A DNA stretch of 64,000 nucleotides. Source: an uncultured Candidatus Saccharibacteria bacterium (lineage in GTDB: Bacteria; Patescibacteriota; WWE3; UBA101185; UBA10185). The DNA is taken from NCBI GenBank assembly GCA_964490125.1, contig CAZBAJ010000003.1, positions 33,941 through 97,940 on the forward strand. The letters are read 5' to 3'. This document shows, in pieces, positions 41,638 to 62,090 of the stretch. How positions within the stretch are numbered: position 1 is the first letter of the stretch; each line of letters starts with the position of its first letter. The translations under genes and the position numbers were made by a program. The notes beneath the pieces are model-generated. The model was not told the DNA's origin. It saw only the letters and a list, made by a program, of their open reading frames with translations, and did no database searches.

Positions 41638-41645
41638 CTTTTAAC

Positions 41646-42479
41646 TTACGGGGTAAGGATTTGGCAATTTGGACAAAAATATGTACCCCGCCCATTTAAC
41701 TTTTTGAACTGTACTTTGCTTTGACAGTCGGGGCAGTGTGTTTTTCCGTAAATTCTAAAATGATTTTGATGACTGCCGGGTTTTCCAAAGACATCAACAT
41801 ACGCTTCATCCGGTAAAGTGGATCCGCGGTGAGTAATGCCTTCCAGTAAAATCTCTTTGGCAGATTTGAGTAAAGCTTGTGCTTGTTTTAGCAAAATCTC
41901 TTGGGTTTTAGCTTCTGGGTGGATTCTTGCCATCCACAAGGCGTCCGTGGCGTAAATGTTTCCCAGTCCCGCAACAATTGTTTGGTCTAGCAAAGCGTTT
42001 TTAATATTTGTTCTCTTTGACCGCAACCTAGTCAAAAAAACTTCTGTGGTAATTTCTTCCAGCACCACATCCGGTCCGTATTTTTGCTTAAGTTTGTGGA
42101 CTCCTGCGGCGTCCAGCACGCCAGTTTTGCCAAACATCCGCGCGTCGCAAAACCTTAATAACTTAATTTTATCTTCGTTAGACAAGGTTAGTTGGACTTT
42201 TTGATGCGGAGCTTTTGGCGAATTATTGTCCTGCAGTAAGAGTCGCCCGGTCATAGCCAAATGAAAAGTTAAAAAACTGCCGTTACTTAATTTTATAACA
42301 ATGTTTTTTCCGACTCTCCCAACCTTGTTGACAAGCGATCCTGTTAGCAGTTGGGCGTAAATTTTATTCTCTGGGATAGTATTGTACCCATGTTCAATTT
42401 CTACTTTGTCTATACGCCAATCAACAAGGTTTTTCTTTAAATCACTGGCTATGATGTGGACTTCAGGCAGTTCCGGCAT
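41646..42479 (-). CDS. mutM: Formamidopyrimidine-DNA glycosylase (Fpg/MutM)
   Basis: Obligate N-terminus 'MPELPEV' (catalytic Pro2) and C-terminal zinc finger 'CPDCQ...CPNCQ'. Start set at the Met-Pro at 42479. Confidence 0.8.
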   Translation of the reverse strand: MPELPEVHIIASDLKKNLVDWRIDKVEIEHGYNTIPENKIYAQLLTGSLVNKVGRVGKNIVIKLSNGSFLTFHLAMTGRLLLQDNNSPKAPHQKVQLTLSNEDKIKLLRFCDARMFGKTGVLDAAGVHKLKQKYGPDVVLEEITTEVFLTRLRSKRTNIKNALLDQTIVAGLGNIYATDALWMARIHPEAKTQEILLKQAQALLKSAKEILLEGITHRGSTLPDEAYVDVFGKPGSHQNHFRIYGKTHCPDCQSKVQFKKLNGRGTYFCPNCQILTP

Positions 42480-43731
42480 TTTGCAAGTCCTCCCATTTTT
42501 GTCTAACAAAGTCGCCAAACTCTTGTTTAAATCGTTCTGTACTAAATTTTTGGACGGAGTTAATAGCTTTTTGGCTGTCGTACAAGCCCGCGTCTATGTT
42601 TTTGTCAAACTCTATAATTTTTTGCGACAGGTGTTGGGGCAAAAGCTCGTCAAAAAACATACCTGTTACACCTTCCTGCACAATTTCCAGCGGACCTCCG
42701 GAACGATGACACAAAACCGGCTTGCCGTAAGACAGGGCTTCCACCGGCACAATGCCAAAATCCTCGTGATCGGTGGGGAAGATAAAGCCTTTGCAATTTG
42801 CCAGCAGTTCTTGTTTTTGGTCGTTTGTGACAAAGCCTAAAAGCTCGATATTCTGCGTCTTAAGTAATAAATCCTGTCCAAGTACGGCTTTAGGTTCCGC
42901 GTCGATTCTGGGCCTTGTCAAAATTTCCGTTTTTGTTTGGGCTATTTCTCTAAGGCGTTTTTCTTCTTTACCTGTACCGGCGATTTTTAGTTTTAGGTTA
43001 GTGAGTTTAAACGCCTGGATTAATAAGTCGATGTTTTTATATGCTGCTAGACGGGAGATGCACAGGTAGTAACCGTCAGTCATATTATTAGGGGCTCGCA
43101 GGCGATGTCCATAAGCAGAAACTTGCGAAGCTCGTGACTGCGATGGACTCGCCAAGAGCCCCGACATGTCAACCGGAGGATAGATCACCACCGAATCCCG
43201 TCCATAAAACTTTTGTACTCGTTTAGCCACTTCTTGTGAGTTTAGCAGTATGTAATCCGGTCTTTGACTTGCGCAGTAGTCCCAGATGAGTAGAAAATGA
43301 TCGATAATTTTTAAAACCGGTTTAAAGTACCACTTTTCTCTTTTTTGACCTTCTGTGGCATAGCCATATAAAAACCTCGGTGGGGTATGAATATACGCAA
43401 CATGCAACTGTTGCGGATTTGTAATCACGCCCTTTGCCCAAATGACGCCCTCGCTTATTACAACATCGTAGTTTCTCAAATCAAAGCTCTCAAAGATAAA
43501 AGGCATCAGAAAACTTAGCCAAGTAGGCAAAGTTCTGCTAATTATCTTGTGCTCAAGTATTTTTTGACTAATATTTTTTGGTCGATAAATTCCTGTATAG
43601 ATGTCCGCTTGGGGGAAAATATCCAAAATCGCCTCTAAAGTCCGTTCCGCCCCGCCATATTGGGTTAGTTGGTCGCGAACAATGGCAATTTTTAAGTCGA
43701 CAAAATTTTTCACCCAAATATTATTGCACAT
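42463..43731 (-). CDS. GT4 (group 1) glycosyltransferase
   Basis: N-terminal 'IAIVRDQLTQYGGAERT' and a C-terminal GT-B domain with E...E motifs ('HEDFGIVPVEALSYGKP'). Confidence 0.75.
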   Translation of the reverse strand: MCNNIWVKNFVDLKIAIVRDQLTQYGGAERTLEAILDIFPQADIYTGIYRPKNISQKILEHKIISRTLPTWLSFLMPFIFESFDLRNYDVVISEGVIWAKGVITNPQQLHVAYIHTPPRFLYGYATEGQKREKWYFKPVLKIIDHFLLIWDYCASQRPDYILLNSQEVAKRVQKFYGRDSVVIYPPVDMSGLLASPSQSRASQVSAYGHRLRAPNNMTDGYYLCISRLAAYKNIDLLIQAFKLTNLKLKIAGTGKEEKRLREIAQTKTEILTRPRIDAEPKAVLGQDLLLKTQNIELLGFVTNDQKQELLANCKGFIFPTDHEDFGIVPVEALSYGKPVLCHRSGGPLEIVQEGVTGMFFDELLPQHLSQKIIEFDKNIDAGLYDSQKAINSVQKFSTERFKQEFGDFVRQKWEDLQNAGTA

Positions 43732-43758
43732 TCGCGTTTTTTATGTTTTTATTAACGC

Positions 43759-44232
43759 ATGTCCAAAGGATTTGCCCATCCTTATTTAATTGTTGCCGTA
43801 CTGGTAATTATTGGTGCCGGTGTAGCAGTTTTTGCCGGTTCTCCTAGACTAGCAGGACTTGTTTTGGGTACCAAGTCGTACGACACAAAAAACTATCAAA
43901 ACAAGGTGGACGGACTTAAAGTCACCGTAATTTCTCCAAACGCTTCTTGGGATTTAATGCAGTATGTGTGTAAGACGCGCGACGAGTGTGAGAAATCTCC
44001 CACCAGTGGAAAGTGGTGGGCAACGGTAAGTGGCGCCCCCACAACCGAGGATGGTCATGAGGTATTTATAGAAAAATCATCAGGTTGGGCGGATTATGGG
44101 TTTCTGAAGGTGGTCGTGCGACAGGCGAACCCAGTCAGTCAGTATCTTGACCCTGTTGGTTATTCTGGTAAGTCTTTGGTTGTGAGTATATTAGATCTGG
44201 ACAGCGCTGATAGGGATATTATTTTTAAATAG
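43759..44232 (+). CDS. Hypothetical membrane-anchored (N-terminal transmembrane) extracytoplasmic protein
   Basis: 157 aa. N-terminal hydrophobic helix 'YLIVAVLVIIGAGVAVFAG'. Two Cys residues. Confidence 0.4.
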   Translation: MSKGFAHPYLIVAVLVIIGAGVAVFAGSPRLAGLVLGTKSYDTKNYQNKVDGLKVTVISPNASWDLMQYVCKTRDECEKSPTSGKWWATVSGAPTTEDGHEVFIEKSSGWADYGFLKVVVRQANPVSQYLDPVGYSGKSLVVSILDLDSADRDIIFK

Positions 44233-44258
44233 GTTTCACTTTGTGCTATAAATAAATT

Positions 44259-45845
44259 ATGCCCAACATTGTTGAATCTCCCTTTGTAGGTGGCAAAGTT
44301 TTTGATCCCAAGCAGGAATTACACTCTCTGACCGCAGGTCAAGAACATTATTCCTATGAAGCTGTTGAGGATTTCAAACATAAATACGAATTCCAAACCC
44401 AGGGTCTAGCACAACTTGAGGAGGAAATCGTTGATGCTTTGGAAAAGAACCTAAGGACAACCAAAGAAACATTGATGGTAATGTTGGCAGAGAGATCGCA
44501 CGATCTTGGATTAACAGGGGAACAAAGTTTACTGGCATCTTCCTTAATTGGCGAATTTATGAACAGGCACGCTGCTGTAATGGATGTTTATGACAGGCAT
44601 AACGGAGATCCAAAGGCAATTTATCAGGAAGTATTTGGCAGAGAAGCCGTAGGTGATGTCGAGACGATTCTCGGTCCCTCCGTACTGTATTTTAGATGTC
44701 ATAGCGAGGATGACTACGCTTTGATATATAGTCAAAAGTTCTTAGCAACGGGGCAACCTCTGACAGAGGAGGATAAAAGGATTGCAAACAATTCTGGTGG
44801 TGCAAGTATACAAACCGCCCTTAGTCCATCTTTACAGGGAGCGTTAATTGCGGAAAACGCACACGGTAGACCCTACGATGGTGTAGCAAGGGAGATTTAC
44901 GAACATGAAAAAAGGCACGCACTCAACAAATTCTTTTTAGAGCGGGGAACGGCGATTAATAGATTTTACGAGATGAAGAATGCCAAAACACCGGAAGAGC
45001 GGGATTTTGCAATGAAGCAATATCTACGATTTATCAGAAGTGGGCAAGAAAGCCGTGCTGCCGATGAACTACTCGCTTATTCTAGTACTGGTAATGAGTC
45101 GCAGTATATTTTGGATACGCTAACTCGTAAAAAGGCTGACGGAGGGCTTTATGACTATTTTGCGGATTATGTAGGTAGCGACTCAACTGGCGGGGGGGGG
45201 CAGATGGAGGAATTTCTTATCAGTATACTGGGTTCGGAAAATAGGCAAAAAATACGAGATGCCATACAGCAGGTATTTGTGGATGAGTATAGGCGAGAAC
45301 TTACAAGAGGTATAGATTCGATCAAACGGCTTACTAGCAGGGGCTACTCACCCCAAGAAGCAACCTCGATTTTAGGGAGGACACCCCTTACAGAATGGAC
45401 GAAAATTAGCAGTCGTTTAGCTGCGGAAAGGTACTTACCGCGAGAGAAATTTTGGCTACCCGGCAACAAAGGTATTAAAGTAGTTGTTGCCGACAGCGAT
45501 GGTCAATTTTATGGTGATGTTGAATTAGCAAGGTACAACCCGTATACCGGTTTACCGGAATATGGGACCATGCGGGACGATCCTGCAGGTAACATTGATT
45601 CCATGCCTGTTGACGATCTTAAAGCTATTAATTATCCATTCAAAACACCTGATTTGTGGTATGAGGTTTGGATGCGTTCTGGAGGGGACCCTGCGGTGAA
45701 AGAAAGCCTAAATCTCGATTTTACCTCTACCCAAGAGATTTCTGCTGATGTTGCATGGGGAAAATTTAGAAGATACTGCAAACCCGATAGTAGGGCTCTT
45801 CGTGTTTTTAATACATATCGGAGGTTACTTCGTGAGGCGTATTAA
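44259..45845 (+). CDS. Large hypothetical protein (528 aa) with a single HExxH (HEKRH)
   Basis: No transmembrane segment. 'EIYEHEKRHALNKFFLERG' contains a potential zincin motif. There is an internal G9 homopolymer at 45192-45200. Confidence 0.45.
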   Translation: MPNIVESPFVGGKVFDPKQELHSLTAGQEHYSYEAVEDFKHKYEFQTQGLAQLEEEIVDALEKNLRTTKETLMVMLAERSHDLGLTGEQSLLASSLIGEFMNRHAAVMDVYDRHNGDPKAIYQEVFGREAVGDVETILGPSVLYFRCHSEDDYALIYSQKFLATGQPLTEEDKRIANNSGGASIQTALSPSLQGALIAENAHGRPYDGVAREIYEHEKRHALNKFFLERGTAINRFYEMKNAKTPEERDFAMKQYLRFIRSGQESRAADELLAYSSTGNESQYILDTLTRKKADGGLYDYFADYVGSDSTGGGGQMEEFLISILGSENRQKIRDAIQQVFVDEYRRELTRGIDSIKRLTSRGYSPQEATSILGRTPLTEWTKISSRLAAERYLPREKFWLPGNKGIKVVVADSDGQFYGDVELARYNPYTGLPEYGTMRDDPAGNIDSMPVDDLKAINYPFKTPDLWYEVWMRSGGDPAVKESLNLDFTSTQEISADVAWGKFRRYCKPDSRALRVFNTYRRLLREAY

Positions 45846-45917
45846 AATCGTTTATTAAAAAAGTGAGGATACGAATTAATTTTGGTGAAATACGAGTTTT
45901 GTTGCTAAACTAATCTT

Positions 45918-46445
45918 ATGCAAATCCTCGCCCGAAATTCGGTTTTATGGGAATACCTTTCGCCTGAGCAACAAGGCTTGGTGCAAGACGGCGAGCTTTT
46001 AATGGAGCAGGCGCACAAAATGCCTCACGGTGTCTCCGATTATTCTTATCTTGTTTTCCCTTTTTCCAAAGCCTATGAGGGCTTTTTAAAAAAGCTGTTT
46101 TTGGACATGAAGCTGATGCGTCCGGAGGATTATTACGGCGAGGACATTAGAATCGGCAAAATTTTGAATCCGCATTTTACCAAAGAGCACGACTCTGTTT
46201 ATAACCGCGTTTGCAAGGGCGCCTTAGAAAACGGAGAAAATATTGTAGCAGCACGACTTTGGAACACCTGGAAAAAAGGGCGTAATCTGGTTTTTCATTA
46301 CTTTCCTCACAATTTTAGGCGACTTTCTTACGACGAGGCAAAAGGGATTATTGAGGAAATTGTTGGTTCTATGAGTTTTGCCATGGAAAAGTGCGATCTT
46401 CCTGTTTATAAGTCAGAAAAGGTAGATTCTTTAGTTCTGTCTTGA
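45918..46445 (+). CDS. HEPN-domain protein (R-N-x3-H motif)
   Basis: 'WKKGRNLVFHYFPH' contains the canonical R[NDH]xxxH HEPN motif near the C-terminus of a helical, roughly 175 aa protein. Confidence 0.5.
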   Translation: MQILARNSVLWEYLSPEQQGLVQDGELLMEQAHKMPHGVSDYSYLVFPFSKAYEGFLKKLFLDMKLMRPEDYYGEDIRIGKILNPHFTKEHDSVYNRVCKGALENGENIVAARLWNTWKKGRNLVFHYFPHNFRRLSYDEAKGIIEEIVGSMSFAMEKCDLPVYKSEKVDSLVLS

Positions 46446-46448
46446 GAC

Positions 46449-46519
46449 TTGCCTGCGATTTGAGGAGTCGGGCGTCCGCCATGGGCGGACAGGGACCCGC
46501 GACGAAAAACGCAGGCAGG
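46449..46519. repeat. GC-rich palindromic mini-element, intergenic copy (HEPN gene / mnmA spacer)
   Basis: ttgcctgcg-atttgaggagtcgggcgtccgccatgggcggacagggacccgcgacga-aaaa-cgcaggcagg. It has outer inverted repeats and an inner perfect hairpin gtccgcc/ggcggac. The core is shared with the copy at 46965-47039. Confidence 0.6.
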
Positions 46520-46556
46520 TCGAGAATAATTCTTGTCGATGAGCTACAATCTCCCC

Positions 46557-47777
46557 ATGTCGTCAAACAAAATAAAAGTAGCGGTGGGGCTTAGCGGAGG
46601 CGTGGATTCGGCAGTTTCCGCCTACCTACTTAAATCTCAAGGTTACGATGTTACCGGCGTTCACATGCAATGCTGGGATTATTCCGACGAAACCTGCAAA
46701 GGCAACGAAGACCGCAGTGACGCGGTGGCAATTTGTGGTCAGCTGGATATTAAGTTTAAGTTTTTGAATTTTGAAAAAGAGTACAAAAGCAAGGTGATTG
46801 ACTATTTTTATGCGGAGTATAAGGCTGGGCGCACACCTAATCCGGATGTTTTGTGTAACAAGGAAATTAAGTTTGGACTTTTTTTGGACTGGGTGATGCG
46901 GGAAGGTTTTGACTTTGTGGCGACGGGGCATTATGCAAGAATAGAAAGCGCATTTGAGGAGGATGGCACGGCAATTCGAGGAGTCGGGCATCCCCCGCCA
47001 GTGGCGGGGGATCGGGACCCGCGACGAGAATGTCGTGCCATCCGACAAACACCGCAGTCGTACAGATTGCTCAAAGGCGTCGACGACAGCAAGGATCAGT
47101 CGTACTTTTTATACCGCCTGACCCAAAGTCAACTGGCAAAAACACTTTTCCCCATTGGCGCAATGAAAAAAAGCGAGGTTAGGAAAATTGCCAAAGAGCA
47201 AAAATTAGTGGTGGCGGAGAAAGCGGAAAGCATGGGGATTTGTTTTGTGGGCGAGGTGGACATCAACAAGTTTTTAAAAAAGCAGATTGAGCCAAAAGCG
47301 GGCGAAGTTATTTTAAAATCCACTGGGGAGACAATTGGTCGACATGAAGGAGTTTGGTTTTACACCATCGGTCAGCGCCACGGGTTTGAGGTGACCAAAT
47401 ATGTAGGTTTGCCGTTGTATGTGGTGGGTAAAAATATTGACCAGAACCAGTTAATTGTTGGCTATTACAACGACTGCTTGCGCGATGGGTTTGATGTCGA
47501 CGATGTTTTTTTTATATCGGAAGGCACGGCGCCAGCTTTTCAAATTCACGGTGTGGAGAACAAGCTCGGATTAGGTTTGGATAGCGAGGTAATTTCTTCC
47601 TTTGACTGCGATGTTCGTATAAGGCACTTGGGTCAACTATACAAGGCTAGGGTTACAAAATCGACAGCGAGTTCATTGCAGATACGACTTGAAGAATCCG
47701 CCTTTGGCGTTGCTCCAGGCCAATCCGCCGTTTTCTACCAGGGTGATGTGGTTTTAGGTGGCGGTGTAATAGTTTAG
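46557..47777 (+). CDS. mnmA: tRNA-specific 2-thiouridylase MnmA
   Basis: PP-loop 'VGLSGGVDSAV' and 'KDQSYFLY', with the C-terminal domain ending 'PGQSAVFYQGDVVLGGGVI'. Start chosen at 46557 (MSSNKIKVAVGL); the longer ORF starts at 46533. It contains a 25-codon in-frame element (46965-47039). Confidence 0.85.
   Translation: MSSNKIKVAVGLSGGVDSAVSAYLLKSQGYDVTGVHMQCWDYSDETCKGNEDRSDAVAICGQLDIKFKFLNFEKEYKSKVIDYFYAEYKAGRTPNPDVLCNKEIKFGLFLDWVMREGFDFVATGHYARIESAFEEDGTAIRGVGHPPPVAGDRDPRRECRAIRQTPQSYRLLKGVDDSKDQSYFLYRLTQSQLAKTLFPIGAMKKSEVRKIAKEQKLVVAEKAESMGICFVGEVDINKFLKKQIEPKAGEVILKSTGETIGRHEGVWFYTIGQRHGFEVTKYVGLPLYVVGKNIDQNQLIVGYYNDCLRDGFDVDDVFFISEGTAPAFQIHGVENKLGLGLDSEVISSFDCDVRIRHLGQLYKARVTKSTASSLQIRLEESAFGVAPGQSAVFYQGDVVLGGGVIV
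46965..47039. repeat. GC-rich palindromic mini-element, copy inserted in frame in mnmA (25 codons)
   Basis: ggcacggca-attcgaggagtcgggcatcccccgccagtggcgggggatcgggacccgcgacga-gaatgtcgtgcc. It shares 'att[tc]gaggagtcgggc' and 'gggacccgcgacga' with the intergenic copy and encodes GTAIRGVGHPPPVAGDRDPRRECRA, which lies in a region that is about 10 aa long in E. coli MnmA. Confidence 0.6.
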
Positions 47778-47862
47778 CGCGGTTTTTTTGATCTATCCCT
47801 CAAAGGCTATTTTCTATCGTATTGCAATTGAATTGCATTTGCAATCTATATGCAATACAGGG

Positions 47863-50274
47863 TCAGAAGGTGTTTGCGATCGTAAAAACGCTACCTTCCA
47901 GTTTAATCTCGTCCTTAAAAAGCCCAAGCGTGTCTACTTTTAACAAGTGCGAGTCTTGCGTGGGTTCCCAATTTTCCGCCAAATCTACGGAGCGGTAAAG
48001 CACGGCAAAGATTCCCTCTTTTACAATTTGGGTTTGGGTTAAATACTCTTCCCAGGAATCTCCGCCGTCTAAAGAAAAAAAGGTTTTTGCTACGCCCGAC
48101 CCGCCTTCTCCGTCCGTGGCGCTCAATTCTATAAAAGGACTTTGGGTGTACCAACCGTCGGTCTGGTTTCCGCTAATACTTATAATGGTTGACGGGGGAT
48201 CTGGGTCAATTTTGTCCCCAAAAACCGCGAATTCACTTAAATGATTAGTAAAACCTGTGATTTTCTTAGTCGATTCGTCCCACACCGAAGCAATTTCTTC
48301 CCAAAATTGGTTTTCTGCGTTAAAGTACAAAATTTTCAGGCTTGACGGGATAATGGCGGACAAATTTAGTTGTGACAAATCAAAAGAAATGTCTATCAAG
48401 TTAGCAAACGATGTTACTGCATCACCCAAATTGTCATAGGCGGTAAACTTTGTGACGGTGCCTTGGATGTAGCTATTAACCACATCTGCCAGTTCCACAT
48501 TAGCTTTAGTGGATTTTTGGGCTTTTAGGGTAATATTTTTGTCCAAAGCTTCGGCCGGAATTGTTATAGAAACCTTATCTGCGGAAACCGTCCCCCCACC
48601 GTCGTCCAAATACTGGGAATTTACCTCCAAAAATTCTTTCCATAAATAATAGCTTTCCGCGCCTGTGTGGTCGCCCAGATCGTCCGTCCAGCTATAAACT
48701 TCCCACGGATCTTCCGACCGTTCGTCCTGCCAGGAATACGGATCAATCCGCCCGTCAGGGACATCGTCCGTAAAGTCGCCGTTTAAATTTTTGTCGTACC
48801 GCACCCCAAAATGCAAATGCGGTCCTGTGGTGTTACCTGTAAGTCCAACCAACCCAACCTGCTGGTTCTTGTCAATCCATTTAGGTTCTTTATCTTTAGA
48901 AGTTACAAACAAGCCCTCTTTTTGAAAATGCAAATACTGCGTTTGATAGCCGTTTTGGTGGTCTATTTTAATAGTATGACCGCCTCCGGCTGAATACGAG
49001 TACGATGCGTAACCGGAAGCCGGGGCTAAAATGGGCGTGCCGTATTTGAGTCCAAAGTCTACTCCGTCGTGGCTGGAATAGTACAGTTGGGGGGTTTTTT
49101 CTTTGTCGCCCCAAAAATTTACCGTGGTATTAGCCTCTTTTGTCGGTTCGCTTTTGTAAGGGTAGGCAAGCAGGGGGTAGGCGTGGTCAAAATACGAGGT
49201 TATAGTGTCTGTTTGGTCGCTCATGGCGTCCCGCGCCCACAATTTGTCCAAAAAAGATTGGGTTTTTGGCACATACGGCGGGACTTTATACCGGAACAAG
49301 CCTGTGCCTGGGCTGGTGGCAAAAATGTAGCCTGGTTCTGCTACAAGGTAGGCAAGTTCGCGGATATAATTTACAAGTTCGTCCGAAGGGTTTTCATCCT
49401 CCCAGGTCACGCCTTTGTCGCGCGACTTTAGAACATTGTAATAGCCGGTGTTGTTGCTGTGGGAAGACGCGTAAAACACGCCATTATAATAGGTAGTAGC
49501 GTAGCATGGATTGGGACTCCAGTTAGGTATTGGGTAAAAGGTTTCCCCATTGTCGGTTGACCTATAAAGTCCTGCTGTGGTGTCACTGCAAGCCAGCCAC
49601 ACGTTGTTGTTGACGGCAAGTCCCAGTAGATAGCCCGGTACTGCGGTAAATAGTCCCCAAGTATTACCGCAGTCGTAAGAAATGTAAGAATTATAGTAAT
49701 TAGAAACTACCACGGCGTCGTCCGCCACATTTACCCTTAAATAGTCACCACTAGAGCCAAAAATGTCTTTGTTTTGATTCCATGTCTGTCCACCGTCGTC
49801 AGAAACCCAAAGTCCGTGGCTATAAGTGCCTAAAATTATATTGTTCCCGCAGGTAGCAACGCTTGCCGTAGAGCAATCGGGACCAATGTGTACCCAGGTT
49901 GACCCCTTGTCGCTTGATTTATACAATCCCGGCGCTTCACTTACGCCCCAATAATAAACTGTGGCATATAAATTCCCATCGTCGTCAAAAGCAATATCCG
50001 TTACACCCCGGTCAAAAAGTCCGCTTTCTTGCCAGGTTTGGCCTAAGTCGCGCGAGAAAAAAACACCGTTGTAAGGAAAAGAACTCCAATTACTGTTAAA
50101 CTCGCCCGCGTAAAGTCCCCACGGGGTTATTTCCGTAGTGTAAAAAGCCTTTGGACTGGCAAGCAGTTCCCAAGCGTCATTCTCCTGATTTATGGTTAAC
50201 GCATAGGTTTTTGCTGTCAATAAAGCCATGTTTATTAAAGCAATCAAAACCAAAGTCGACCAGATTTTTTTCAT
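47863..50274 (-). CDS. Secreted BNR/Asp-box repeat protein fused to an M23 (LytM-type) peptidase domain
   Basis: Signal peptide. Multiple S-x-D-x-G-x-T-W Asp-box repeats ('SRDLGQTWQE', 'SSDKGSTWVH', 'SDDGGQTWNQ', 'SYDCGNTWGL', 'STDNGETFYP', 'SRDKGVTWED'). M23 signature 'GNTTGPHLHFGVRY'. 803 aa. Confidence 0.65.
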   Translation of the reverse strand: MKKIWSTLVLIALINMALLTAKTYALTINQENDAWELLASPKAFYTTEITPWGLYAGEFNSNWSSFPYNGVFFSRDLGQTWQESGLFDRGVTDIAFDDDGNLYATVYYWGVSEAPGLYKSSDKGSTWVHIGPDCSTASVATCGNNIILGTYSHGLWVSDDGGQTWNQNKDIFGSSGDYLRVNVADDAVVVSNYYNSYISYDCGNTWGLFTAVPGYLLGLAVNNNVWLACSDTTAGLYRSTDNGETFYPIPNWSPNPCYATTYYNGVFYASSHSNNTGYYNVLKSRDKGVTWEDENPSDELVNYIRELAYLVAEPGYIFATSPGTGLFRYKVPPYVPKTQSFLDKLWARDAMSDQTDTITSYFDHAYPLLAYPYKSEPTKEANTTVNFWGDKEKTPQLYYSSHDGVDFGLKYGTPILAPASGYASYSYSAGGGHTIKIDHQNGYQTQYLHFQKEGLFVTSKDKEPKWIDKNQQVGLVGLTGNTTGPHLHFGVRYDKNLNGDFTDDVPDGRIDPYSWQDERSEDPWEVYSWTDDLGDHTGAESYYLWKEFLEVNSQYLDDGGGTVSADKVSITIPAEALDKNITLKAQKSTKANVELADVVNSYIQGTVTKFTAYDNLGDAVTSFANLIDISFDLSQLNLSAIIPSSLKILYFNAENQFWEEIASVWDESTKKITGFTNHLSEFAVFGDKIDPDPPSTIISISGNQTDGWYTQSPFIELSATDGEGGSGVAKTFFSLDGGDSWEEYLTQTQIVKEGIFAVLYRSVDLAENWEPTQDSHLLKVDTLGLFKDEIKLEGSVFTIANTF

Positions 50275-50362
50275 GCCCCAAGGATGCCAGAAAAAAGTTT
50301 AAATACAATAGAGTTCTCTCTAATCAGAATAGAATTTTGACATTTAATTTGGGTAGTTTACA

Positions 50363-51694
50363 ATGGCAAACATGGTTTCTATGTCGGACTTACAATATAA
50401 AAACCCCAGTCTGCGGAAAGCCCAGCTTGAAGGCATTCTCTATTATTTCAAGAATTTGCCGTCACTACGGTCTTCTCAATTGGTGGCGCTTACTGGTTTG
50501 CCCAAGGAAACTTTGCGGACTTTTAAGTCGTCCATAAAAGAGTTTTTAGAGCCTGCTGACGGGGATAATTTGGTGTTAAACGACTTGGGGAGGCATTTTG
50601 TCGCCCAAAACGCTTGTCCGCCCTATAAATGGTCTTTGGTAGAGTATAGCGACAAGGAGTTGGAGGCTAAATTAGAGCTGGTAAGATCCTCCACGCGTCT
50701 CGCCAGTGAGCCAAAGAGGCAATACGACCAATTTTTTGCCTCAATTCAAAGTTCCGTCGCTAAGGCGTTGGTGGTAAAAGATAAGGGTTTGCTCACAGAC
50801 AAAGCCAAAATTGCGCTACTTGGTGACGATGATTTAGTCAGCCTTGTTTTAGCCCTTGTCAACCCTAACTTGGAAATTACTGTTTTTGAAATTGACAAAG
50901 ACATTAGCAACACAATTAGCGCTGGCATGGATTTATTGGGTATCAAAAATATCCAATTAGTTTTGTACGACGCTAGAAACGGCCTAGAAAAGCATTTTGC
51001 AGATAAATTTGATGTCGTTCTAACCGATCCGCCTTACACCAAGTCCGGTTTTGCCCTTTTTTTAAAGCGCGCAGTAGAACTTGCTGGTTATGATGCTCAC
51101 AAACAGCAGGCCAAGTACATTTTTATCCATTACGGCGCGTCTTTTAAGTCGCCAGAAAAATTTTTAAAAGTGCAGGAAGTTATAAACCGGTTTGGACTTT
51201 GGCAAGAGGATGTTTTGTACAATTTTGCCCGTTATTACGGTGCGGAATCTATTGGCAACGCTAGCTCGTTATATATTTTGCAGACGACTCCGCACGCCAA
51301 TGCCCAAGCGGTGCTGTCGCCCCAAACCATTTACACCTTTGAAGCCCAACAAGAGGAAAAGTTTCCTTATGTCGACCATTTTGTACTCAAACTTAACAAG
51401 GTACCCGTTAGTATAATAGATTCCAAAAAACAGCTCCAAAAATTGGCGGGGGAGTTTTGCAACATCCACAAACTTAATGTGGTTCAGTCGGAAATTTACA
51501 AATTTAAGCCCCACGGCTATTCGTTAACTTTTATTTTGTCCAACAGTAATTTGTTAATTCACACTTGGCCGGAATACGGGGCAATTCATGTGGACTTAAT
51601 AACCTGTGTTCCTCTTTTTAACAAGCAAATTTTGGGCGATACTTTCAGTCGCTTGTTCCAAACCCAGTCAATTGAACTTACGCAGGTTGAATAA
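50363..51694 (+). CDS. Fusion of a DUF43/BpsA-like aminopropyltransferase (branched-polyamine synthase-like) with a SpeH-type pyruvoyl S-adenosylmethionine decarboxylase
   Basis: The N-terminal domain carries 'LLGDDDLVSL' and 'VLTDPPYT' (BpsA/DUF43-like). The C-terminal roughly 120 aa carry 'LSNSNLLIHTWPEYGAIHVDLITC', which matches the SpeH/SpeD '(E)SH..iHTWPE...D.F.C' proenzyme motif. Confidence 0.5.
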   Translation: MANMVSMSDLQYKNPSLRKAQLEGILYYFKNLPSLRSSQLVALTGLPKETLRTFKSSIKEFLEPADGDNLVLNDLGRHFVAQNACPPYKWSLVEYSDKELEAKLELVRSSTRLASEPKRQYDQFFASIQSSVAKALVVKDKGLLTDKAKIALLGDDDLVSLVLALVNPNLEITVFEIDKDISNTISAGMDLLGIKNIQLVLYDARNGLEKHFADKFDVVLTDPPYTKSGFALFLKRAVELAGYDAHKQQAKYIFIHYGASFKSPEKFLKVQEVINRFGLWQEDVLYNFARYYGAESIGNASSLYILQTTPHANAQAVLSPQTIYTFEAQQEEKFPYVDHFVLKLNKVPVSIIDSKKQLQKLAGEFCNIHKLNVVQSEIYKFKPHGYSLTFILSNSNLLIHTWPEYGAIHVDLITCVPLFNKQILGDTFSRLFQTQSIELTQVE

Positions 51695-51774
51695 TTAAAT
51701 GACCTCATTTTCCTTAGTTGATCAATGTGGTAAATTGACGGCACTGAAATTGGCGCCGTTTTGAATAGTAGTCC

Positions 51775-52416
51775 TTAGACTGCGTTCCGGGTTAGACCGT
51801 GATAGAAACGGCGTATATTTTTATAGATAGACCTCTTCATCCCCTCTGTTTTCGTTGTATTGTTGATACTTCTTCCCGTTTCGTATTCGTATACGAGTCC
51901 AGAAACCATGTCTGCAACTTGAATCAACTCGTCGTTTTTGGAATTACTGTACCTTATTTCAAGTTGAGCATCGGATGATTTATCTTTAACAGCTCTTTTT
52001 ATATCCATTAAGTATTTTTTACTACCTTTACCGTCTATGACTATGTGAAATGCAAAAGAACCAGTTGGTAAAGTTTTCCTTATTTGAGCGAAAAGATAGC
52101 CTAAATACTTTCCGTAACTGGTATTAGGATCGTTAGGTTTTTTATTTACCACTAAAGCAAAAGCTTGGCATTCCACATGTTTCAGATTTCCAAAGAAAGC
52201 TTCCTTATATAAACCCCGCGTTTTCTGATACTTAAATTCATAACTTCCCGGAATTTTGAGATGTTTCTTGAGTGTTTGTATTTTTTCTACTGCCAGCATA
52301 GTGGAGATTTTGTCAGAAAAGTAAATTGCAGACATAACAAAAACTTTAGAAGCTCCTCGCCTTGTAATAGAGCCGATGTCGCCAGACTCGTCAATAAAAA
52401 GGTATTGTTTTACCAT
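51775..52416 (-). CDS. DUF3800-family protein
   Basis: N-terminal 'YLFIDESGD' and C-terminal 'LIQVADMVSG' are the hallmark motifs of DUF3800. Confidence 0.6.
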   Translation of the reverse strand: MVKQYLFIDESGDIGSITRRGASKVFVMSAIYFSDKISTMLAVEKIQTLKKHLKIPGSYEFKYQKTRGLYKEAFFGNLKHVECQAFALVVNKKPNDPNTSYGKYLGYLFAQIRKTLPTGSFAFHIVIDGKGSKKYLMDIKRAVKDKSSDAQLEIRYSNSKNDELIQVADMVSGLVYEYETGRSINNTTKTEGMKRSIYKNIRRFYHGLTRNAV

Positions 52417-52568
52417 AATTAGGAAATTGAGCAGGGGAGCAGGTTACAAAACATATTAGCAGAATTATTTCTGATTTCAACAGGCGCAACCCTTGAGGGT
52501 TAATGAGGATACCAAATAGGTTTTTCGCCGTCACAACAACTAATAATTTGAGGTCACAAATTGTGACC

Positions 52569-53201
52569 TCAAGTTGTTACTGAAGCAGAAACTATTTTTT
52601 CCAATAAGTAAAGATACTCTACATTCTTGCCCTTGGCGCCTAAAATGGGCGACTTAACGGAGTCGACAACAGAAAAGCCCGCGGCTAAAACATCCTTGGT
52701 AACCTTTTGAAGAAGTGCTTGGACGGTTGCATCCTGTTCCAGATCGGGGTTGCCCGTTTTGGGATAGTTTAAATCCAGCCTCTTCGACCACTTTACCTGT
52801 CGGCTATTTCCCCCTGCCTCAAAACTTAGTTTGACTAAAGAAATTACCCGCCCACCGTCCTTTAAATTCTTAGAAGCTGACGGCAGGATAACCGATTGTT
52901 TTGTCCACCCCGCGTCAATAGTAATAAGATCTACTTTTTCCGGAAGTTCCACATACACCGCGTTGGTTTTTTCCATGACCACCACCCGCCCGTCGTTCCG
53001 CAGTTTCCAGTCCAAAAGCCCGTAACCCGTTTCCACCGCGTAAACCTTTTTAGCCCCGTTCTGCAGCAGGCAATCCACAAATCCTCCGGTTGACGACCCG
53101 AAGTCCGCGCAAATCAAGTCGTTTACCTCCACATTGAAGGACTTTAAGGCAAACTCTAGTTTTTCCCCCGCCCGGCTGGCATACTTTTGTTTCTGCATCA
53201 C
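52569..53201 (-). CDS. tlyA: TlyA-family rRNA 2'-O-methyltransferase (FtsJ-like)
   Basis: 'YASRAGEKLEFAL' and 'CADFGSSTGGFVDCLLQNGAKKVYAVETG' resemble the TlyA/FtsJ SAM-binding region. No S4 domain (short form). Confidence 0.65.
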   Translation of the reverse strand: MMQKQKYASRAGEKLEFALKSFNVEVNDLICADFGSSTGGFVDCLLQNGAKKVYAVETGYGLLDWKLRNDGRVVVMEKTNAVYVELPEKVDLITIDAGWTKQSVILPSASKNLKDGGRVISLVKLSFEAGGNSRQVKWSKRLDLNYPKTGNPDLEQDATVQALLQKVTKDVLAAGFSVVDSVKSPILGAKGKNVEYLYLLEKIVSASVTT

Positions 53202-53252: not shown

Positions 53253-54154
53253 GTCGTTTGTCCCCTGATTCTATTGTCGTACTATTACTACACAGGCAGG
53301 GCGTCAGCTCTTTGAAAAATTGTGGAAGAAAGTATAGGTAAGAAGACCTTTCTACTTTAAAGTCGTACAACAAGGTACCAGCAAAAAACGCTGATACCGT
53401 GGTCAAAAGACAAGTTCAAAAGTTGAAAGGCAAAAAGAATGTTTCTTTGAGAATTTGATCCTAGTTCAGGACGAACGCTAGCGGCGTGCCTAAGGTATGC
53501 AAGTCGAACGGTTTAATTGTCGCAAGATAGTTGGATAGTGGCGAACGGCTGAGTAACACACAGGAATCTACCCATAAGTAGAGGATAGTCTGCCGAAAGG
53601 CAGGGTAATACTCTATGTGGTCGCAAGACTAAAGCAGCAATGCGCTTAAGGATGAGCCTATGGCCTATCAGGTAGTTGGTGGGGTAATTGCCTACCAAGC
53701 CTATGACGGGTAGCCGGTCTGAGAGGACGAACGGCCAGAGGGGGACTGAGACACGGCCCTCACTCCTACGGGAGGCAGCAATTGGGAATTTTGCACAATG
53801 GACGAAAGTCTGATGCAGCGACGCCGCGTGAAGGATGACGGCCTTCGGGTTGTAAACTTCGATAAAGCACCGGCAAACTACGTGCCAGCAGCAGCGGTCA
53901 TACGTAGGGTGCAAGCGTTGTCCGGATTTACTGGGCGTAAAGAGTTCTGTAGGCGGTTGCGTAAGTTACAAGTTAAATCTTTGGGCTCAACCCAAAAACT
54001 GCTTTTAATACTGCGCGACTAGAGACATCTAGGGGACAGCGGAACTTATGGTGGAGCAGTGAAATGCGTTGATATCATAGGGAACACCAAGGGGGTAGCC
54101 AGCTGTCTGGGGATGTACTGACGCTGAGAGACGAAAGCGTGGGGAGTAAAACGG

Positions 54155-55192
54155 ATAGTAGTCTGGTCCCTCCTTTAAGGTGACTTTTAGGAGAAAAATT
54201 CGGCTATATGCTGGGACACCCGTACCACAATTAAGGGAAATATGTGGTTGACACCAAAATGTCGTAAAAGTATCTTGAACTACTAAACATATTCGGGTAA
54301 AATTCGTATATGTTCAGTGAAAATGTTTCAAGTGCGGACAATCAGCAGGAAAGACTGGGAACAAAAGTTCCCGGAATCCTCAGAGACTGTACGCCGAATG
54401 TCTCGGGTTCTTTTGGTTTACCTTCCTTATTGGGTCTACTTTATACTGATGGCTGTCTTTCAGCCAAAGGTAAAAGTTGGCGTTTATTCTTTGCCGTCAA
54501 GTCGTACAAACTGGTATGCGTGTTTGAAGAATGCGTCTATCGGTTGTTTAATGTCGACAAGGGCAGAGTGAGGGTAGCTAGAACAAAAGATGATTTATGG
54601 AGAGCGGTTGTAGACTCTAAAGAAATTGGAAACTACTTAACAAAAAACTTTGGTTGTTTTAGAACAGCAAAGTTTAAAGACGGTTCCTTACCGGGAATCA
54701 GGTTACCATTAACCTATCTTAGGCAATGTAACGGTATTAGAGAATTTTTGTCGTCCGCATTTAGTTGCGACGGCGGAGTTTCTTTTTATCCAGTTTACAG
54801 AACCGGTAGGTTTGGTGGAACTAGGTGGTTTAACAGAAATGTTTTTTTGGCGTGTATGCACCCTATGTTACTTAATGACTACAGTTTTTTGCTAAATTCA
54901 TTGGGTATAAAGGGGTCTGTGCTAAACGACAGGATAAAGATTTCTTCTAGAGAAGATATGTCCAACTTCCAGCGTGAAGTGGATTTTATCAAAGGTGTTG
55001 AGGTTACTAATCATTCCAAACTATGGAGAGGTTTAGATAAGTCAACACTATTAACATACGCTATAAATTCATATACAAACCGAGATAATGGTATAGCCCG
55101 ATCTCTATAGCGATATAGAGAGTTAGTGATAGTGTACTAACCTTTTGTCCTAATTAAAGAGTGACAAAAGCAACAAGCAGAAATATTACAAT
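54155..55192 (+). mobile_element. Intervening sequence or intron within the 16S gene (at the 'GGATTAGATACCC' ~785-800 region), carrying a homing-endonuclease ORF
   Basis: About 1036 nt absent from the canonical 16S alignment. The boundaries are ambiguous by 1-2 nt because 'at' is shared at the junction. Class (group I, other, or unspliced IVS) was not determined. Confidence 0.6.
54310..55110 (+). CDS. LAGLIDADG homing endonuclease (double-motif)
   Basis: Motif 1 'LLGLLYTDGCLS' and motif 2 'FLSSAFSCDGGVSF', about 100 aa apart, inside the 16S intervening sequence. 266 aa. Confidence 0.7.
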   Translation: MFSENVSSADNQQERLGTKVPGILRDCTPNVSGSFGLPSLLGLLYTDGCLSAKGKSWRLFFAVKSYKLVCVFEECVYRLFNVDKGRVRVARTKDDLWRAVVDSKEIGNYLTKNFGCFRTAKFKDGSLPGIRLPLTYLRQCNGIREFLSSAFSCDGGVSFYPVYRTGRFGGTRWFNRNVFLACMHPMLLNDYSFLLNSLGIKGSVLNDRIKISSREDMSNFQREVDFIKGVEVTNHSKLWRGLDKSTLLTYAINSYTNRDNGIARSL

Positions 55193-55683
55193 GTAGATAC
55201 CCGTGTAATCCACGCCGTAAACCATGCCTGCTAGATACCCGATTTATTTTAGGTGTCGAAGCTAACGCGTTAAGCAGGCCGCCTGGGGAGTACGGTCGCA
55301 AGGCTAAAACTCAAAGGAATTGGCGGGGTCCCGCACAAGCGGTGGAGCATGCTCTTCAATTGGCTGCTAACCCAAGAACCTTACCCAGACTTGACATGCA
55401 AGAGTTCTATGCCGGTGAAAGCCGGCAAATCCGCAAGGAGGCTTGCACAGGTGTTGCATGGCTGTCGTCAGCTCGTATCGTGAGACGTACCCTTAAGTGG
55501 GCTAACGAGCGCAACCCCTACCGTTAGTTGTATCACTCTAGCGGAACTGCCCTGGTAACAGGGAGGAAGGCGGGGACGACGTCAAGTCAGGATTGCCTTT
55601 ATGTCTGGGGCTAGAAGCATGCTACAATGGCGCGTACAGCGAGAAGCAAGATCGTGAGGTTGAGCAAATCTCTTAAAACGCGT

Positions 55684-55722
<39 letters not shown>

Positions 55723-56227
55723 TTGGAATCGCTAGTAATCGGCGGTCAGCTATACGCCGGTGAATACGTTCTCGGGTCTTGCACACACCGCCCGTCACGC
55801 CAGCAAAGCTGGGGCTACCCTAAATCTCTGCATTAGTAGGGCTCACGGTAGAACCAGTGATGAGGGTGAAGTCGTAACAAGGTAGCCGTAGGGGAATCTG
55901 CGGCTGGATCACCTCCTTTCTAGGGAGAAACTTTAGCCAGTGAAAAATCGGATACTTTAATGACCAAGCGTCAAGCGAGTCCGTCTTTGAATCTGGCGCC
56001 GTCTGACCAAGAAACTCATAAGTCAAACGCGTAACCTCCATAACTCACGGAGGGTTGGGTAAGTTTTAAGGTAAGCTTCAAACCTTTAAATGAGCATTCT
56101 TTTTGCCTTTCTTCCTTTGAACAATTAAATTTAGGACGACTTTTTGGGCGACAAATTAGGAGTTTGACGATTTTATCTGTTGATATGTCGCACGATTTGT
56201 CCACTTTGTGCGATTTAACGGTGTTAA

Positions 56228-59512: not shown

Positions 59513-61004
59513 ACTGTCACCTATAAAATTGGCTTTAGCGCTAATTATTACCTTTCTAGCTTTCGCTTTCCGTGTTCACAGACTTGCCATACCCACAGCA
59601 TGGGTCTTTGACGAAATTTACCATGCCTACACGGCAGAATTTTACGCTCTTAACGATCCCCGCGGTTACGAGTGGTGGCACCCCATTCCACAAGGGCTGG
59701 CACTGGAGTGGCTCCACCCGCCGGTAGAAAAACTCCTAATGGCTGCAAGTATCCGCATATTTTCCAAACCAACCGAATATTTTTCTCAAACCAACCCGCC
59801 ACTGGATGCCAAAACTACCTTTGCTTGGCGCTTTCCCACCGCCGTCTGCACCTCGCTCACCGTGCTAGTCGTCATACTTATGGGTACGCGCATGTTTAAC
59901 TTTCCCGTAGGCTTTTTAGCAGGACTCTTTTACGCCATAGATCCGCTCTCCTTTGTCCACGGTCGGCTTGCCACCAGCGACGGTATTTTTACCTTTTTTT
60001 CCACCCTCGCTTTTTACCGTCTGTACATTTTTTTAGCCGAATACCCACGCAAATATCTCCAAAACCTTCTGCTTCTTGGTCTTACCCTTGGTCTGGCTTT
60101 TAGCACCAAATTTACCGGTACCTTTAATATTATTTGGTCGACTCTATCTATCGTGGGACTTTTTGTTTGGCGACATGTGACAAGCCAAATTCCCGTCGTT
60201 CGCCCGAATAAGTCAAAAAAACCAGTCAGCCCGTCCAACATACTTAGTAGCGACTACACTTTAGATAAACTTTTTCTCACGCTACTTACGCTTGGTTTAA
60301 CAGTTCTAAACGTCTACCTTTTCTCTTACTTACAATGGTGGTTGCAGGGACACACTTGGCAACAATTTTACGAGCTACACAACCAAATTATCCGCTATCA
60401 CATTGGGCTTAAAGCCACGCACCCTTTTAGCTCGCATCCGCTTTCCTGGCCAATTATGCAAAAGCCCGTTTGGATTTATATGGGCAAAGATGAATTAGGA
60501 AATACGTTAAATATCTGGTCGACGGGGAATAAGGTAACTTGGTACGGCGGGCTGGTTGCTGTTTTGTATTTTGTAGGACTTTTGGGGGTGCGACTTGGAA
60601 AGTCGGTTCGATGTGAGTGGCAGGAGCGGTTAACTAATCCCTCCCGACAAGCAAAGCATCGTCAGAAGGAAAATCATATTCAACTGTGTAAACCCAGTGC
60701 GTTTCTAACCTCCACGCTCAATGGTTTTCTTACAACCCAAAACTTAAGACTCGTCTTCTTGCTAATCGCCTATTTTGGGATGTTTCTGCCGTGGGCGCTA
60801 TCCCCCAGAATCATGTTTATTTACCACTATCTGCCCGCCTTGCCGTTTTTGTTTTTACTGTTAGCTAAGTTTCTTCTCACCGTTACTTATAAGTTTAGCG
60901 GTTTTATTAGCAAATTTATCAAAATCCCTGTCTGCTTTACTCGGGGTTTCTATGATTTTCTTGTAATACCTGTCGTACTCTTTTTCTGCCAGTTCTTTTG
61001 CTAA
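59499..61004 (+). CDS. PMT-family (GT39) protein O-mannosyltransferase-like membrane glycosyltransferase
   Basis: 'DEIYHAYTAEFY' and 'EWLHPPVEKLL' are the DE/HPP signature of loop 1 in the PMT/GT39 family. The 3' end overlaps the convergent RhuM gene by about 140 nt and lacks the C-terminal domain of its neighbours, so it may be truncated or read through. Confidence 0.6.
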   Translation: MKMFKLSPIKLALALIITFLAFAFRVHRLAIPTAWVFDEIYHAYTAEFYALNDPRGYEWWHPIPQGLALEWLHPPVEKLLMAASIRIFSKPTEYFSQTNPPLDAKTTFAWRFPTAVCTSLTVLVVILMGTRMFNFPVGFLAGLFYAIDPLSFVHGRLATSDGIFTFFSTLAFYRLYIFLAEYPRKYLQNLLLLGLTLGLAFSTKFTGTFNIIWSTLSIVGLFVWRHVTSQIPVVRPNKSKKPVSPSNILSSDYTLDKLFLTLLTLGLTVLNVYLFSYLQWWLQGHTWQQFYELHNQIIRYHIGLKATHPFSSHPLSWPIMQKPVWIYMGKDELGNTLNIWSTGNKVTWYGGLVAVLYFVGLLGVRLGKSVRCEWQERLTNPSRQAKHRQKENHIQLCKPSAFLTSTLNGFLTTQNLRLVFLLIAYFGMFLPWALSPRIMFIYHYLPALPFLFLLLAKFLLTVTYKFSGFISKFIKIPVCFTRGFYDFLVIPVVLFFCQFFC

Positions 61005-61898: not shown

Positions 61899-62090
61899 AT
61901 ACGAATTATACCACCAGATTTGCCCAAAACTCTTGTATACCCGCCTACACAAGAAACCTAGGTTTGTAATCTATTACGCTATACAAGAAACAGCAGGCTA
62001 AAAATAGCCTTGGTGGACTTGACAAAAATCCTGACGAACCCTAAAATTCATATGAGAAATGCAGTATTTATTGCATTTTGGATACCACTT

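Follow-up and report, generated by a model that had tools for sequence, protein, structure and literature searches.

A BpsA-type aminopropyltransferase architecture joined to a SpeH-type S-adenosylmethionine decarboxylase domain in candidate division WWE3

The N4-bis(aminopropyl)spermidine synthase BpsA (EC 2.5.1.128) has been described from Thermococcus kodakarensis (5xnc, 5xnf and 5xnh) and Thermus thermophilus (6j27), a homologue is available from Pyrococcus (2qm3), and according to a 2026 review bpsA orthologues are confined to thermophiles (PMC12979288). The references for the class 1b (SpeH/SpeD) S-adenosylmethionine (AdoMet) decarboxylases are TM0655 of Thermotoga maritima (1tlu/1vr7) and the Aquifex enzyme (2iii). 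Fusions of an AdoMet decarboxylase with an aminopropyltransferase are known from Candidatus Pelagibacter and are functional, both activities having been demonstrated by complementation of E. coli ΔspeD and ΔspeE (PMC11107197). The gene reported here lies at 50363..51694 (+) in a stretch of 64,000 nucleotides (the window) from contig CAZBAJ010000003.1 of an uncultured bacterium of the candidate division WWE3. It encodes a single polypeptide in which a complete BpsA-type architecture (residues 1-327) is followed by a predicted class 1b, SpeH-type AdoMet decarboxylase fold (residues 336-443).

The window protein resembles the Pelagibacter proteins in that one chain combines an aminopropyltransferase with a class 1b AdoMet decarboxylase. 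However, the decarboxylase is N-terminal in Pelagibacter and C-terminal here, and the transferase is of the SpeE type (PF01564, direct SN2 transfer) in the former and of the BpsA type (PF01861) in the latter; the two fusions are of independent origin, and no PF01564 match was found in the window protein using Pfam. The whole architecture of BpsA is shared, consisting of the N-domain, the Rossmann domain, the terminal strand and the Tyr-acidic tail, but the window protein is only ~22-24% identical to BpsA, carries the fused decarboxylase, and comes from mesophile-type bacteria of the candidate phyla radiation (CPR). Its decarboxylase domain is ~24% identical to the SpeH/SpeD references and differs from them in having Asn-Ser-Asn in place of Glu-Ser-His, in a predicted alpha chain of 49 residues, and in not being free-standing. 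Both kinds of enzyme and the idea of a fusion between an AdoMet decarboxylase and an aminopropyltransferase were known already; the arrangement with the BpsA-type part first and the SpeH-type part last appears to be new. No description of it was found in the literature searched, which misses most subscription journals, in agreement with the original prediction, made from the sequence of the window, that the fusion had not been characterised. The sole paper found to name both BpsA and an AdoMet decarboxylase was the 2026 review (PMC12979288), in which the words ‘fusion’ and ‘fused’ do not occur.

The open reading frame (ORF) listing of the window gives one uninterrupted frame of 443 codons and a stop at exactly the coordinates given in the original prediction, and the motifs named there are present: GDDD(L) at residues 154-158 (50822-50836), DPPYT at residues 222-226 (51026-51040) and the SpeH hallmark string LSNSNLLIHTWPEYGAIHVDLITC at residues 392-415. 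In a Pfam search, residues 115-304 scored 102.3 bits (cut-off 27; E 3.2e-29) with BpsA_C (PF01861, formerly DUF43; profile positions 14-196 of 243). The score of residues 339-442 with AdoMet_dc (PF02675) was 68.3 bits (cut-off 25; E 8.7e-19). The remaining methyltransferase families in Pfam scored at or below their own cut-offs. In a sequence search of the Protein Data Bank (PDB), the T. kodakarensis BpsA (5xnc) was matched with an E value of 1.2e-20, the Pyrococcus homologue (2qm3) was also matched, and the Aquifex and Thermotoga AdoMet decarboxylases were matched at about 1e-8.

For comparison, a canonical BpsA set was assembled from thermophilic archaea and bacteria, comprising proteins of ~350 residues that carry PF01861 only, of which 20 were aligned. 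As judged by hhalign, residues 3-324 of the window protein correspond to residues 1-343 of canonical BpsA (probability 99.94%, E 2.9e-37), including the N-terminal domain, in which residues 3-76 correspond to residues 1-74. An AlphaFold2 model built from 108 homologues was confident throughout, including the junction (mean predicted local distance difference test score 91.6, predicted TM-score 0.78). When this model was searched using Foldseek, chain B of BpsA 5xnc was recovered with E 9e-21 over 339 columns, and the T. maritima AdoMet decarboxylase proenzyme (1vr7/1tlu) with a TM-score of 0.81 and a root-mean-square deviation of 1.9 Å over 107 columns. Three parts can hence be drawn: an N-terminal helical, winged-helix-like domain (residues 1-95; 50363..50647, +) that is homologous to the BpsA N-domain and has a family-conserved TGLPKETL segment; a Rossmann-fold BpsA-type aminopropyltransferase domain (residues 100-310; 50660..51292, +), defined by Pfam, 5xnc/2qm3 and Foldseek; and the class 1b pyruvoyl AdoMet decarboxylase domain (residues 336-443; 51368..51691, +), defined by Pfam, 1tlu/2iii and Foldseek. 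Pfam, the profile-profile comparison with canonical BpsA and the fold agree on the N-terminal assignment, and the C-terminal match is significant by both profile and fold. Neither an unrelated methyltransferase family for the N-terminal half nor a missing SpeH match for the C-terminal half, the outcomes that had been named as grounds for abandoning the original prediction, was observed.

A search of 5.8 billion proteins recovered at least 119 full-length clusters of ~435-445 residues, all with both Pfam domains. The residue counts given below as x/119 refer to 119 clusters at 90% identity, full-length and 44-100% identical to the window protein. When a single genome was scanned for each species, the fusion was found in 51 species, nearly all of them candidate division WWE3/Patescibacteria and including the closed genome CP006914.1, which answers the proposal to look for it in other CPR genomes. 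The two halves are conserved to much the same degree, the mean pairwise identity being 53% for the transferase and 54% for the decarboxylase, compared with 50% for the junction. The junction itself, I-Y-T-F-E-A-Q-Q-E-E-K (residues 323-333; 51329..51361, +) as placed by the family alignment and hhalign, follows the consensus IYT[FY]E..[KQ]EEKFP[YF]VDH that is kept across the family, in which Tyr324, Phe334 and Pro335 are invariant. In the hhalign comparison Tyr324 is aligned with the invariant Tyr343 in the C-terminal tail of canonical BpsA, and the decarboxylase domain starts about ten residues past it. That two neighbouring genes were merged by an assembly or annotation error, or that the frame is a pseudogene, is almost certainly wrong, as at least 119 clusters and the genomes of 51 species, one of them closed, show the same unbroken architecture, the junction is conserved, and the model is confident across it. 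This recurrence and the conserved junction likewise refute a frameshift.

The acidic residues that follow Tyr324 at the junction are also conserved, with Glu327 being Glu in 104/119 (acidic in 111/119), Glu331 in 100/119 and Glu332 in 105/119. The acidic tail of T. kodakarensis BpsA (Tk-BpsA) serves as the carrier of the aminopropyl group in a ping-pong reaction (PMC12979288). Glu327, Glu331 and Glu332 stand where BpsA has this acidic carrier cluster (Tk-BpsA Glu339 and Asp342-Glu345) and, from the alignment, may be equivalent to it.

Residues invariant among the 119 homologues in the transferase half are R119, D122, Q123, G154-D-D-D157, D178, D222-P-P-Y-T226, Y291 and Y324. The GDDD motif (Gly154-Asp157; 50822..50833, +; 119/119) corresponds to Gly157-Asp160 of Tk-BpsA, in which Asp159 and Asp160 hold the aminopropyl amine of decarboxylated AdoMet in position (PMC12979288). 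Motif IV, DPPYT (Asp222-Thr226; 51026..51040, +), is invariant and occupies the place of DPPET in canonical BpsA; Asp222 is aligned with Asp225, the Asp that activates the acceptor in Tk-BpsA. The other features kept in comparison with canonical BpsA are Asp122/Gln123 (Asp126/Gln127), Asp178 (D181), Asp203/Arg205 (D206/R208), the two prolines after Asp222 (D225-P-P), Thr226 (T229), Tyr291 (Tyr290) and Tyr324 (Tyr343).

Amino-group methyltransferases classically have DPPY as their motif IV, and the N-terminal half might on this ground be taken for an AdoMet-dependent (D/N)PPY N-methyltransferase that acts on an amino group of a nucleic acid or protein, in which case the polyamine reading would be wrong. 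The weak Pfam and NCBIfam matches to RsmD (Cons_hypoth95, 24 bits at a cut-off of 24), N6-adenine methylase and PrmC, the structural neighbour METTL5 (TM-score 0.73-0.77), the winged-helix-like N-domain and the position of the gene beside rRNA and tRNA-modification genes point the same way. However, the BpsA match is much stronger (102 versus 24 bits) and the hhalign match extends across the whole BpsA-type part. In place of the glycine-rich motif I there is an invariant GDDD, the motif with which BpsA binds decarboxylated AdoMet, and two of its carboxylates stand where AdoMet would have its own. The repeated fusion of this subfamily to AdoMet decarboxylases would be hard to explain in a methyltransferase, and such an activity is considered highly improbable.

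In the decarboxylase half, G385, S395, W402, E404 and C415 are invariant. Cleavage is predicted at Asn394-Ser395 (51542..51547, +), where Ser395 (119/119) corresponds to T. maritima Ser63, and would yield a beta chain of 394 residues and an alpha chain of 49 residues with Ser395 converted to the pyruvoyl group. His400-Thr-Trp-Pro-Glu404 (51560..51574, +) corresponds to T. maritima His68...Glu72, with His in 118/119, Trp in 119/119, Pro in 115/119 and Glu in 119/119, and Cys415 (51605..51607, +) to Cys83, which serves in catalysis and processing. Ser63, His68 and Cys83 are essential for self-processing and catalysis of AdoMet decarboxylase (Li et al., PMC10407285). The alignments further equate Gly385 with Gly53, Ser/Thr387 with Ser55, Trp402-Pro403-Glu404 with Trp70-Pro71-Glu72, and Asp411 with Asp79.

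Two derived types described within this decarboxylase family were compared with the window protein and set aside. The ornithine decarboxylases (SpeDC) are recognised by Gln, Thr, Phe and Tyr residues, seen in Fig. S5 of PMC10407285 as Q-L-I-E-T-S...G-H-F-A-N...Y-I-D-I-F-S-C; the corresponding segment of the window protein, I-L-S-N-S-N-L-L-I-H-T-W-P-E...H-V-D-L-I-T-C, has none of them. The proline of WPE is conserved in every bona fide AdoMet decarboxylase and not in the derived arginine decarboxylases, SpeDA (PMC10407285). Its retention in 115/119 homologues speaks against the SpeDA type, a weak criterion given that SpeDA arose several times (PMC10407285).

The window protein is, on balance, probably a bifunctional proenzyme, which would form decarboxylated AdoMet and aminopropylate an amine. 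The C-terminal 108 residues would cleave themselves at Asn394-Ser395, with the 49-residue alpha chain remaining bound to the 394-residue beta chain. The pyruvoyl group derived from Ser395 would form a Schiff base with AdoMet and, after loss of CO2 and reprotonation by Cys415, decarboxylated AdoMet would be released. The N-terminal half would then bind decarboxylated AdoMet via the GDDD loop and Asp178/Asp203, and, with release of methylthioadenosine, donate the aminopropyl group to an amine bound at Asp222-Pro-Pro-Tyr225 and Tyr291. Transfer could be direct, or the junction glutamates could first take up the group as an ester, the route that has been proposed for T. kodakarensis BpsA. The fusion would tie the supply of decarboxylated AdoMet one-to-one to its only evident consumer. 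The acceptor is probably a polyamine. Self-processing, both activities, the coupling or hand-off between the halves, and oligomerisation are what we infer from the sequence.

Several observations weigh against this reading. In the transferase half the canonical Glu228 is missing, with an invariant Tyr225 in its place, as is Arg322; Glu259 falls in an alignment gap, and a deletion of ~14 residues takes out Pro311, Trp315 and Tyr316. In Tk-BpsA the acceptor amine is activated by Asp225, Glu259, Tyr290 and Tyr316 (PMC12979288). As far as the alignments go, the donor site is conserved and about half of the acceptor site is changed, and because half of the acceptor-pocket residues of BpsA are changed, the acceptor would not necessarily be the N4 of spermidine. 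In a neighbour-joining (NJ) tree of 97 sequences, which carries no support values and is indicative only, the 16 canonical BpsA proteins form a clean clade without any DPPY-type protein. Hence, of the ‘branched-polyamine synthase’ named in the original prediction, the BpsA-like domain stands, but the protein lies outside the characterised BpsA clade and its acceptor pocket is different, so that branched-polyamine synthesis is at most a putative function.

The decarboxylase half adds to these points. The NCBIfam equivalog TIGR03330 gave 54.7 bits with the whole protein and 58.9 bits with the domain alone, both below the cut-off of 75.65. Acidic residues are lost at two positions, T. maritima Glu11 being replaced by Lys343 (51389..51391, +; Lys in 117/119, Arg in 2/119) and Glu62 by Asn394, His64 is replaced by Asn (118/119), and a new invariant His409 is present. 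The Glu11 position is acidic in canonical SpeH and in fusions of the canonical type. As to whether the E/S processing site is conserved, the serine is (119/119), but the residue before it is Asn, Thr, Ser or Gln, and the one after it is Asn and not His. AdoMet decarboxylases of classes other than 1b use different residues at the -1 position of the cleavage site. Because Glu11, Glu62 and His64 are substituted and His409 is gained, the active site appears remodelled, and the substrate or the competence of the domain could differ. An intermediate sequence (P0267), with SQSH in the cleavage region and Glu at the Glu11 position, links the canonical and WWE3 flavours of the decarboxylase. In addition, neither the window nor any of 51 related loci was found to have a gene for polyamine biosynthesis or transport within ±10 kb of the fusion gene, so that no source of the acceptor is apparent.

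The remodelling could mean that the decarboxylase half is active on a changed substrate, as the arginine and ornithine decarboxylases are, and supplies the acceptor amine or another product. Neofunctionalisation of class 1b AdoMet decarboxylases is widespread, also among CPR bacteria (PMC10407285), TIGR03330 does not reach its cut-off with this domain, and the Glu11 and Glu62 replacements change the charge alongside the changes at His64 and His409. Yet H-T-W-P-E is kept with the proline that arginine decarboxylases have lost, and the Q, T-S, G-H-F and Y of the ornithine type are absent. Moreover, a changed substrate would leave the transferase without a donor, as no second SpeH or BpsA homologue was found in the window by tblastn, and the sister fusions described below have a fully canonical AdoMet decarboxylase half. 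A changed substrate is hence regarded as unlikely.

The same substitutions could be those of a non-catalytic domain that serves in dimerisation or binds AdoMet or decarboxylated AdoMet to regulate the transferase, in the manner of the degenerate second half of the eukaryotic AdoMet decarboxylase or of the SpeD-SpeDC fusion of Victivallis. Fusions with a degenerate SpeD domain have been described, and the acidic residue at the Glu11 position, which is Lys here, is kept in the AdoMet decarboxylase and ornithine decarboxylase domains of Fig. S5 (PMC10407285). The documented degenerate domains, however, have lost the serine and other catalytic residues, whereas Ser395 and Cys415 are present here in 119/119 and His400 in 118/119, Gly385 and Ser/Thr387 are retained, and the domain is as well conserved as the transferase half. 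Loss of catalysis is accordingly judged very unlikely, and the bifunctional proenzyme is preferred over both alternatives.

Relatives of the fusion extend beyond WWE3. A HMMER search of 1.84 billion representatives gave 1985 matches at E <= 0.001, of which 67 were at E <= 1e-30. Motif IV reads DPPET in 109/120 canonical BpsA proteins, compared with DPPY[T/S] in 125 of the 148 nearest representatives (at 50% identity) of the transferase subfamily of the window protein, and 34 of these 148 have the SpeH motif. Pfam confirmed BpsA_C together with AdoMet_dc in relatives of 461-520 residues from Vagococcus fluvialis, Enterococcus sp., Lokiarchaeota and Heimdallarchaeota. The uncharacterised fusions named here are V. 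fluvialis WP_167806534 (445 residues), that of Enterococcus sp. LJL128 (516 residues), Lokiarchaeota NHJ22539 and Heimdallarchaeota NHJ00789, and the Vagococcus, Enterococcus and Asgard proteins are annotated in databases as ‘adenosylmethionine decarboxylase’. They share with the window protein the domain order, the DPPY[T/S] subfamily with GDDD, and the IYT-acidic tail, but are about 25-33% identical to it, have longer linkers, and their decarboxylase half is canonical: E-S-H is present, the Glu11 position is acidic, and Pfam gives 93-112 bits. In the Enterococcus protein, a zinc-ribbon-like CxxC...CxxC insert separates the two domains. In the NJ tree these fusions are basal and the WWE3 fusions form a derived group (again without support values). 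That the DPPY subfamily has been paired, repeatedly or ancestrally, with what looks like a bona fide AdoMet decarboxylase speaks more strongly than any other indirect evidence for its use of decarboxylated AdoMet.

This distribution suggests a tentative and rather unlikely extension of the bifunctional reading, in which BpsA-type transfer reaches beyond thermophiles. A large mesophilic DPPY subfamily in CPR bacteria, Firmicutes and Asgard archaea would receive decarboxylated AdoMet in cis and act on an acceptor other than the N4 of spermidine. This is proposed because the pocket is remodelled with the aromatic DPPY and because of the gene neighbours in Heimdallarchaeota. A scavenged polyamine could then be lengthened or branched, or the acceptor could be an amine other than a polyamine, for example that of a lipid head group or an amino group of a macromolecule. 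In addition, the re-wiring of the WWE3 decarboxylase at Glu11, Glu62, His64 and His409 could reflect a changed mechanism or substrate.

The gene contexts of the wider relatives are as follows. In Heimdallarchaeota (RDOB01000002.1 4950-9067; L054) the fusion gene lies between genes for inositol-1-phosphate synthase, a UbiA prenyltransferase and a CTP_transf_1 protein (CDP-alcohol/archaeol synthase-like), all in one direction, which may point to a connection with a lipid head group. In Vagococcus fluvialis (L052/L053 8001-9796) a GNAT acetyltransferase gene lies 24 nt downstream of the fusion gene, and in Enterococcus sp. (L055 5748-8551) one lies 780 nt upstream. These adjacent GNAT genes are compatible with, and not specific for, polyamine acetylation. 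A stand-alone DPPY-type BpsA-like protein of 313 residues also occurs in WWE3-type genomes (P0270/P0408; L057 6001-6942). It ends directly after the IYT-x-E tail and has GDGD in place of GDDD. In the search for split genes no speH was found beside P0408, whose neighbours encode RNase H and GroEL.

WWE3 bacteria have very small genomes with few biosynthetic pathways, and retention of a self-sufficient aminopropylating enzyme would imply that its product matters to the cell. The relatives in cultivable Vagococcus and Enterococcus make the chemistry directly testable, and the WWE3 decarboxylase half, as a natural variant near the pyruvoyl site, may inform which residues are needed for self-processing and AdoMet decarboxylation.

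The genetic context of the fusion gene in WWE3 is conserved. In the window (40535-53201) and in the related loci L001-L051 the gene order is RecF-like, Fpg, GT4 glycosyltransferase, small unknown protein, RnlA-like, MnmA, M23 peptidase (divergent), fusion and 16S rRNA. The fusion gene of the window is divergent from, and 88 nt apart from, the gene for an 803-residue M23-peptidase/BNR protein. In 45/50 loci the fusion gene is next to the divergent M23 peptidase gene (median gap 82 nt) and upstream of the 16S rRNA gene. Because the position is the same in 45/50 loci, the constant genomic place indicates long vertical inheritance under selection. Many of the related contigs break about 0.6-1.9 kb downstream of the fusion gene, presumably at the rRNA operon. 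DUF3800 and FtsJ genes are also among the neighbours of the fusion gene in the window and the loci.

The original prediction had further proposed that the fusion gene forms a compact polyamine pathway together with a spermidine synthase-like gene at 12593-13282 (+). The 229-residue product of this gene matches Pfam Spermine_synth with 27.1 bits against a cut-off of 22.9, but falls far below the NCBIfam aminopropyltransferase family NF003380 (58.8 versus 304 bits), and its best PDB match is the methyltransferase domain of METTL13 (2.2e-9). In spermidine synthases the aminopropyl amine is bound by the Asp of GGGDG, a residue whose substitution goes along with the change to AdoMet in putrescine N-methyltransferase. 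In the family of the 12593-13282 protein, motif I reads GLGGG[T/S/A] in 107/120 homologues and GMGGGT in 3, the pattern was not found in 10, and GGGD was never seen, the position of the Asp being taken by neither Asp nor Glu in any homologue. For this protein, which has the spermidine-synthase fold, AdoMet-dependent methyl transfer is a likelier activity than aminopropyl transfer, and the proposed pathway is unsupported. The family is conserved across WWE3 on the same contigs as the fusion, but this co-occurrence was rejected as evidence for a partnership, both genes simply being lineage-wide.

The start of the fusion protein may lie slightly downstream of the first ATG of the 443-codon frame. 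A database protein that is 100% identical has 440 residues, as would the product of the alternative start at 50372. A promoter-like TTGACA-16 nt-TACAAT site (50337..50364, +) matches the consensus at 11/12 positions, and such sites are as numerous in the window as expected from shuffled sequence. Its -10 box overlaps the first ATG of the frame, which suggests a transcript that starts near 50371, ~7 nt past the promoter and at or next to the ATG of Met4. Because the identical database protein has 440 residues and the -10 box overlaps the first ATG, translation may begin at Met4 (50372) and the mRNA is possibly leaderless.

Other features were observed around the fusion gene. An Rfam DUF3800-IX RNA motif (51752-51819, +; 38.8 bits against a gathering threshold of 36.8) begins 58 nt past the fusion stop codon and is antisense to the 3' end of the DUF3800 gene on the minus strand (51775-52416), an unexpected orientation. 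The 16S rRNA gene (53443-55919, +) is 2477 nt long compared with a model of 1533 nt, which corresponds to an insertion of ~940 nt. The insertion holds a LAGLIDADG-type ORF of 266 codons (54310-55110; 29.3 bits against a cut-off of 22.5), and no group I intron was matched in it using Rfam at E <= 0.01. The RnlA-like protein of 175 residues (45918-46445, +), encoded beside mnmA in 38 loci, has weak matches to the RnlA toxin and HEPN RNase LS that lie below the Pfam cut-offs. Near the end of the window, a gene of the RhuM family (60861-61952, -) was identified with 369 bits.

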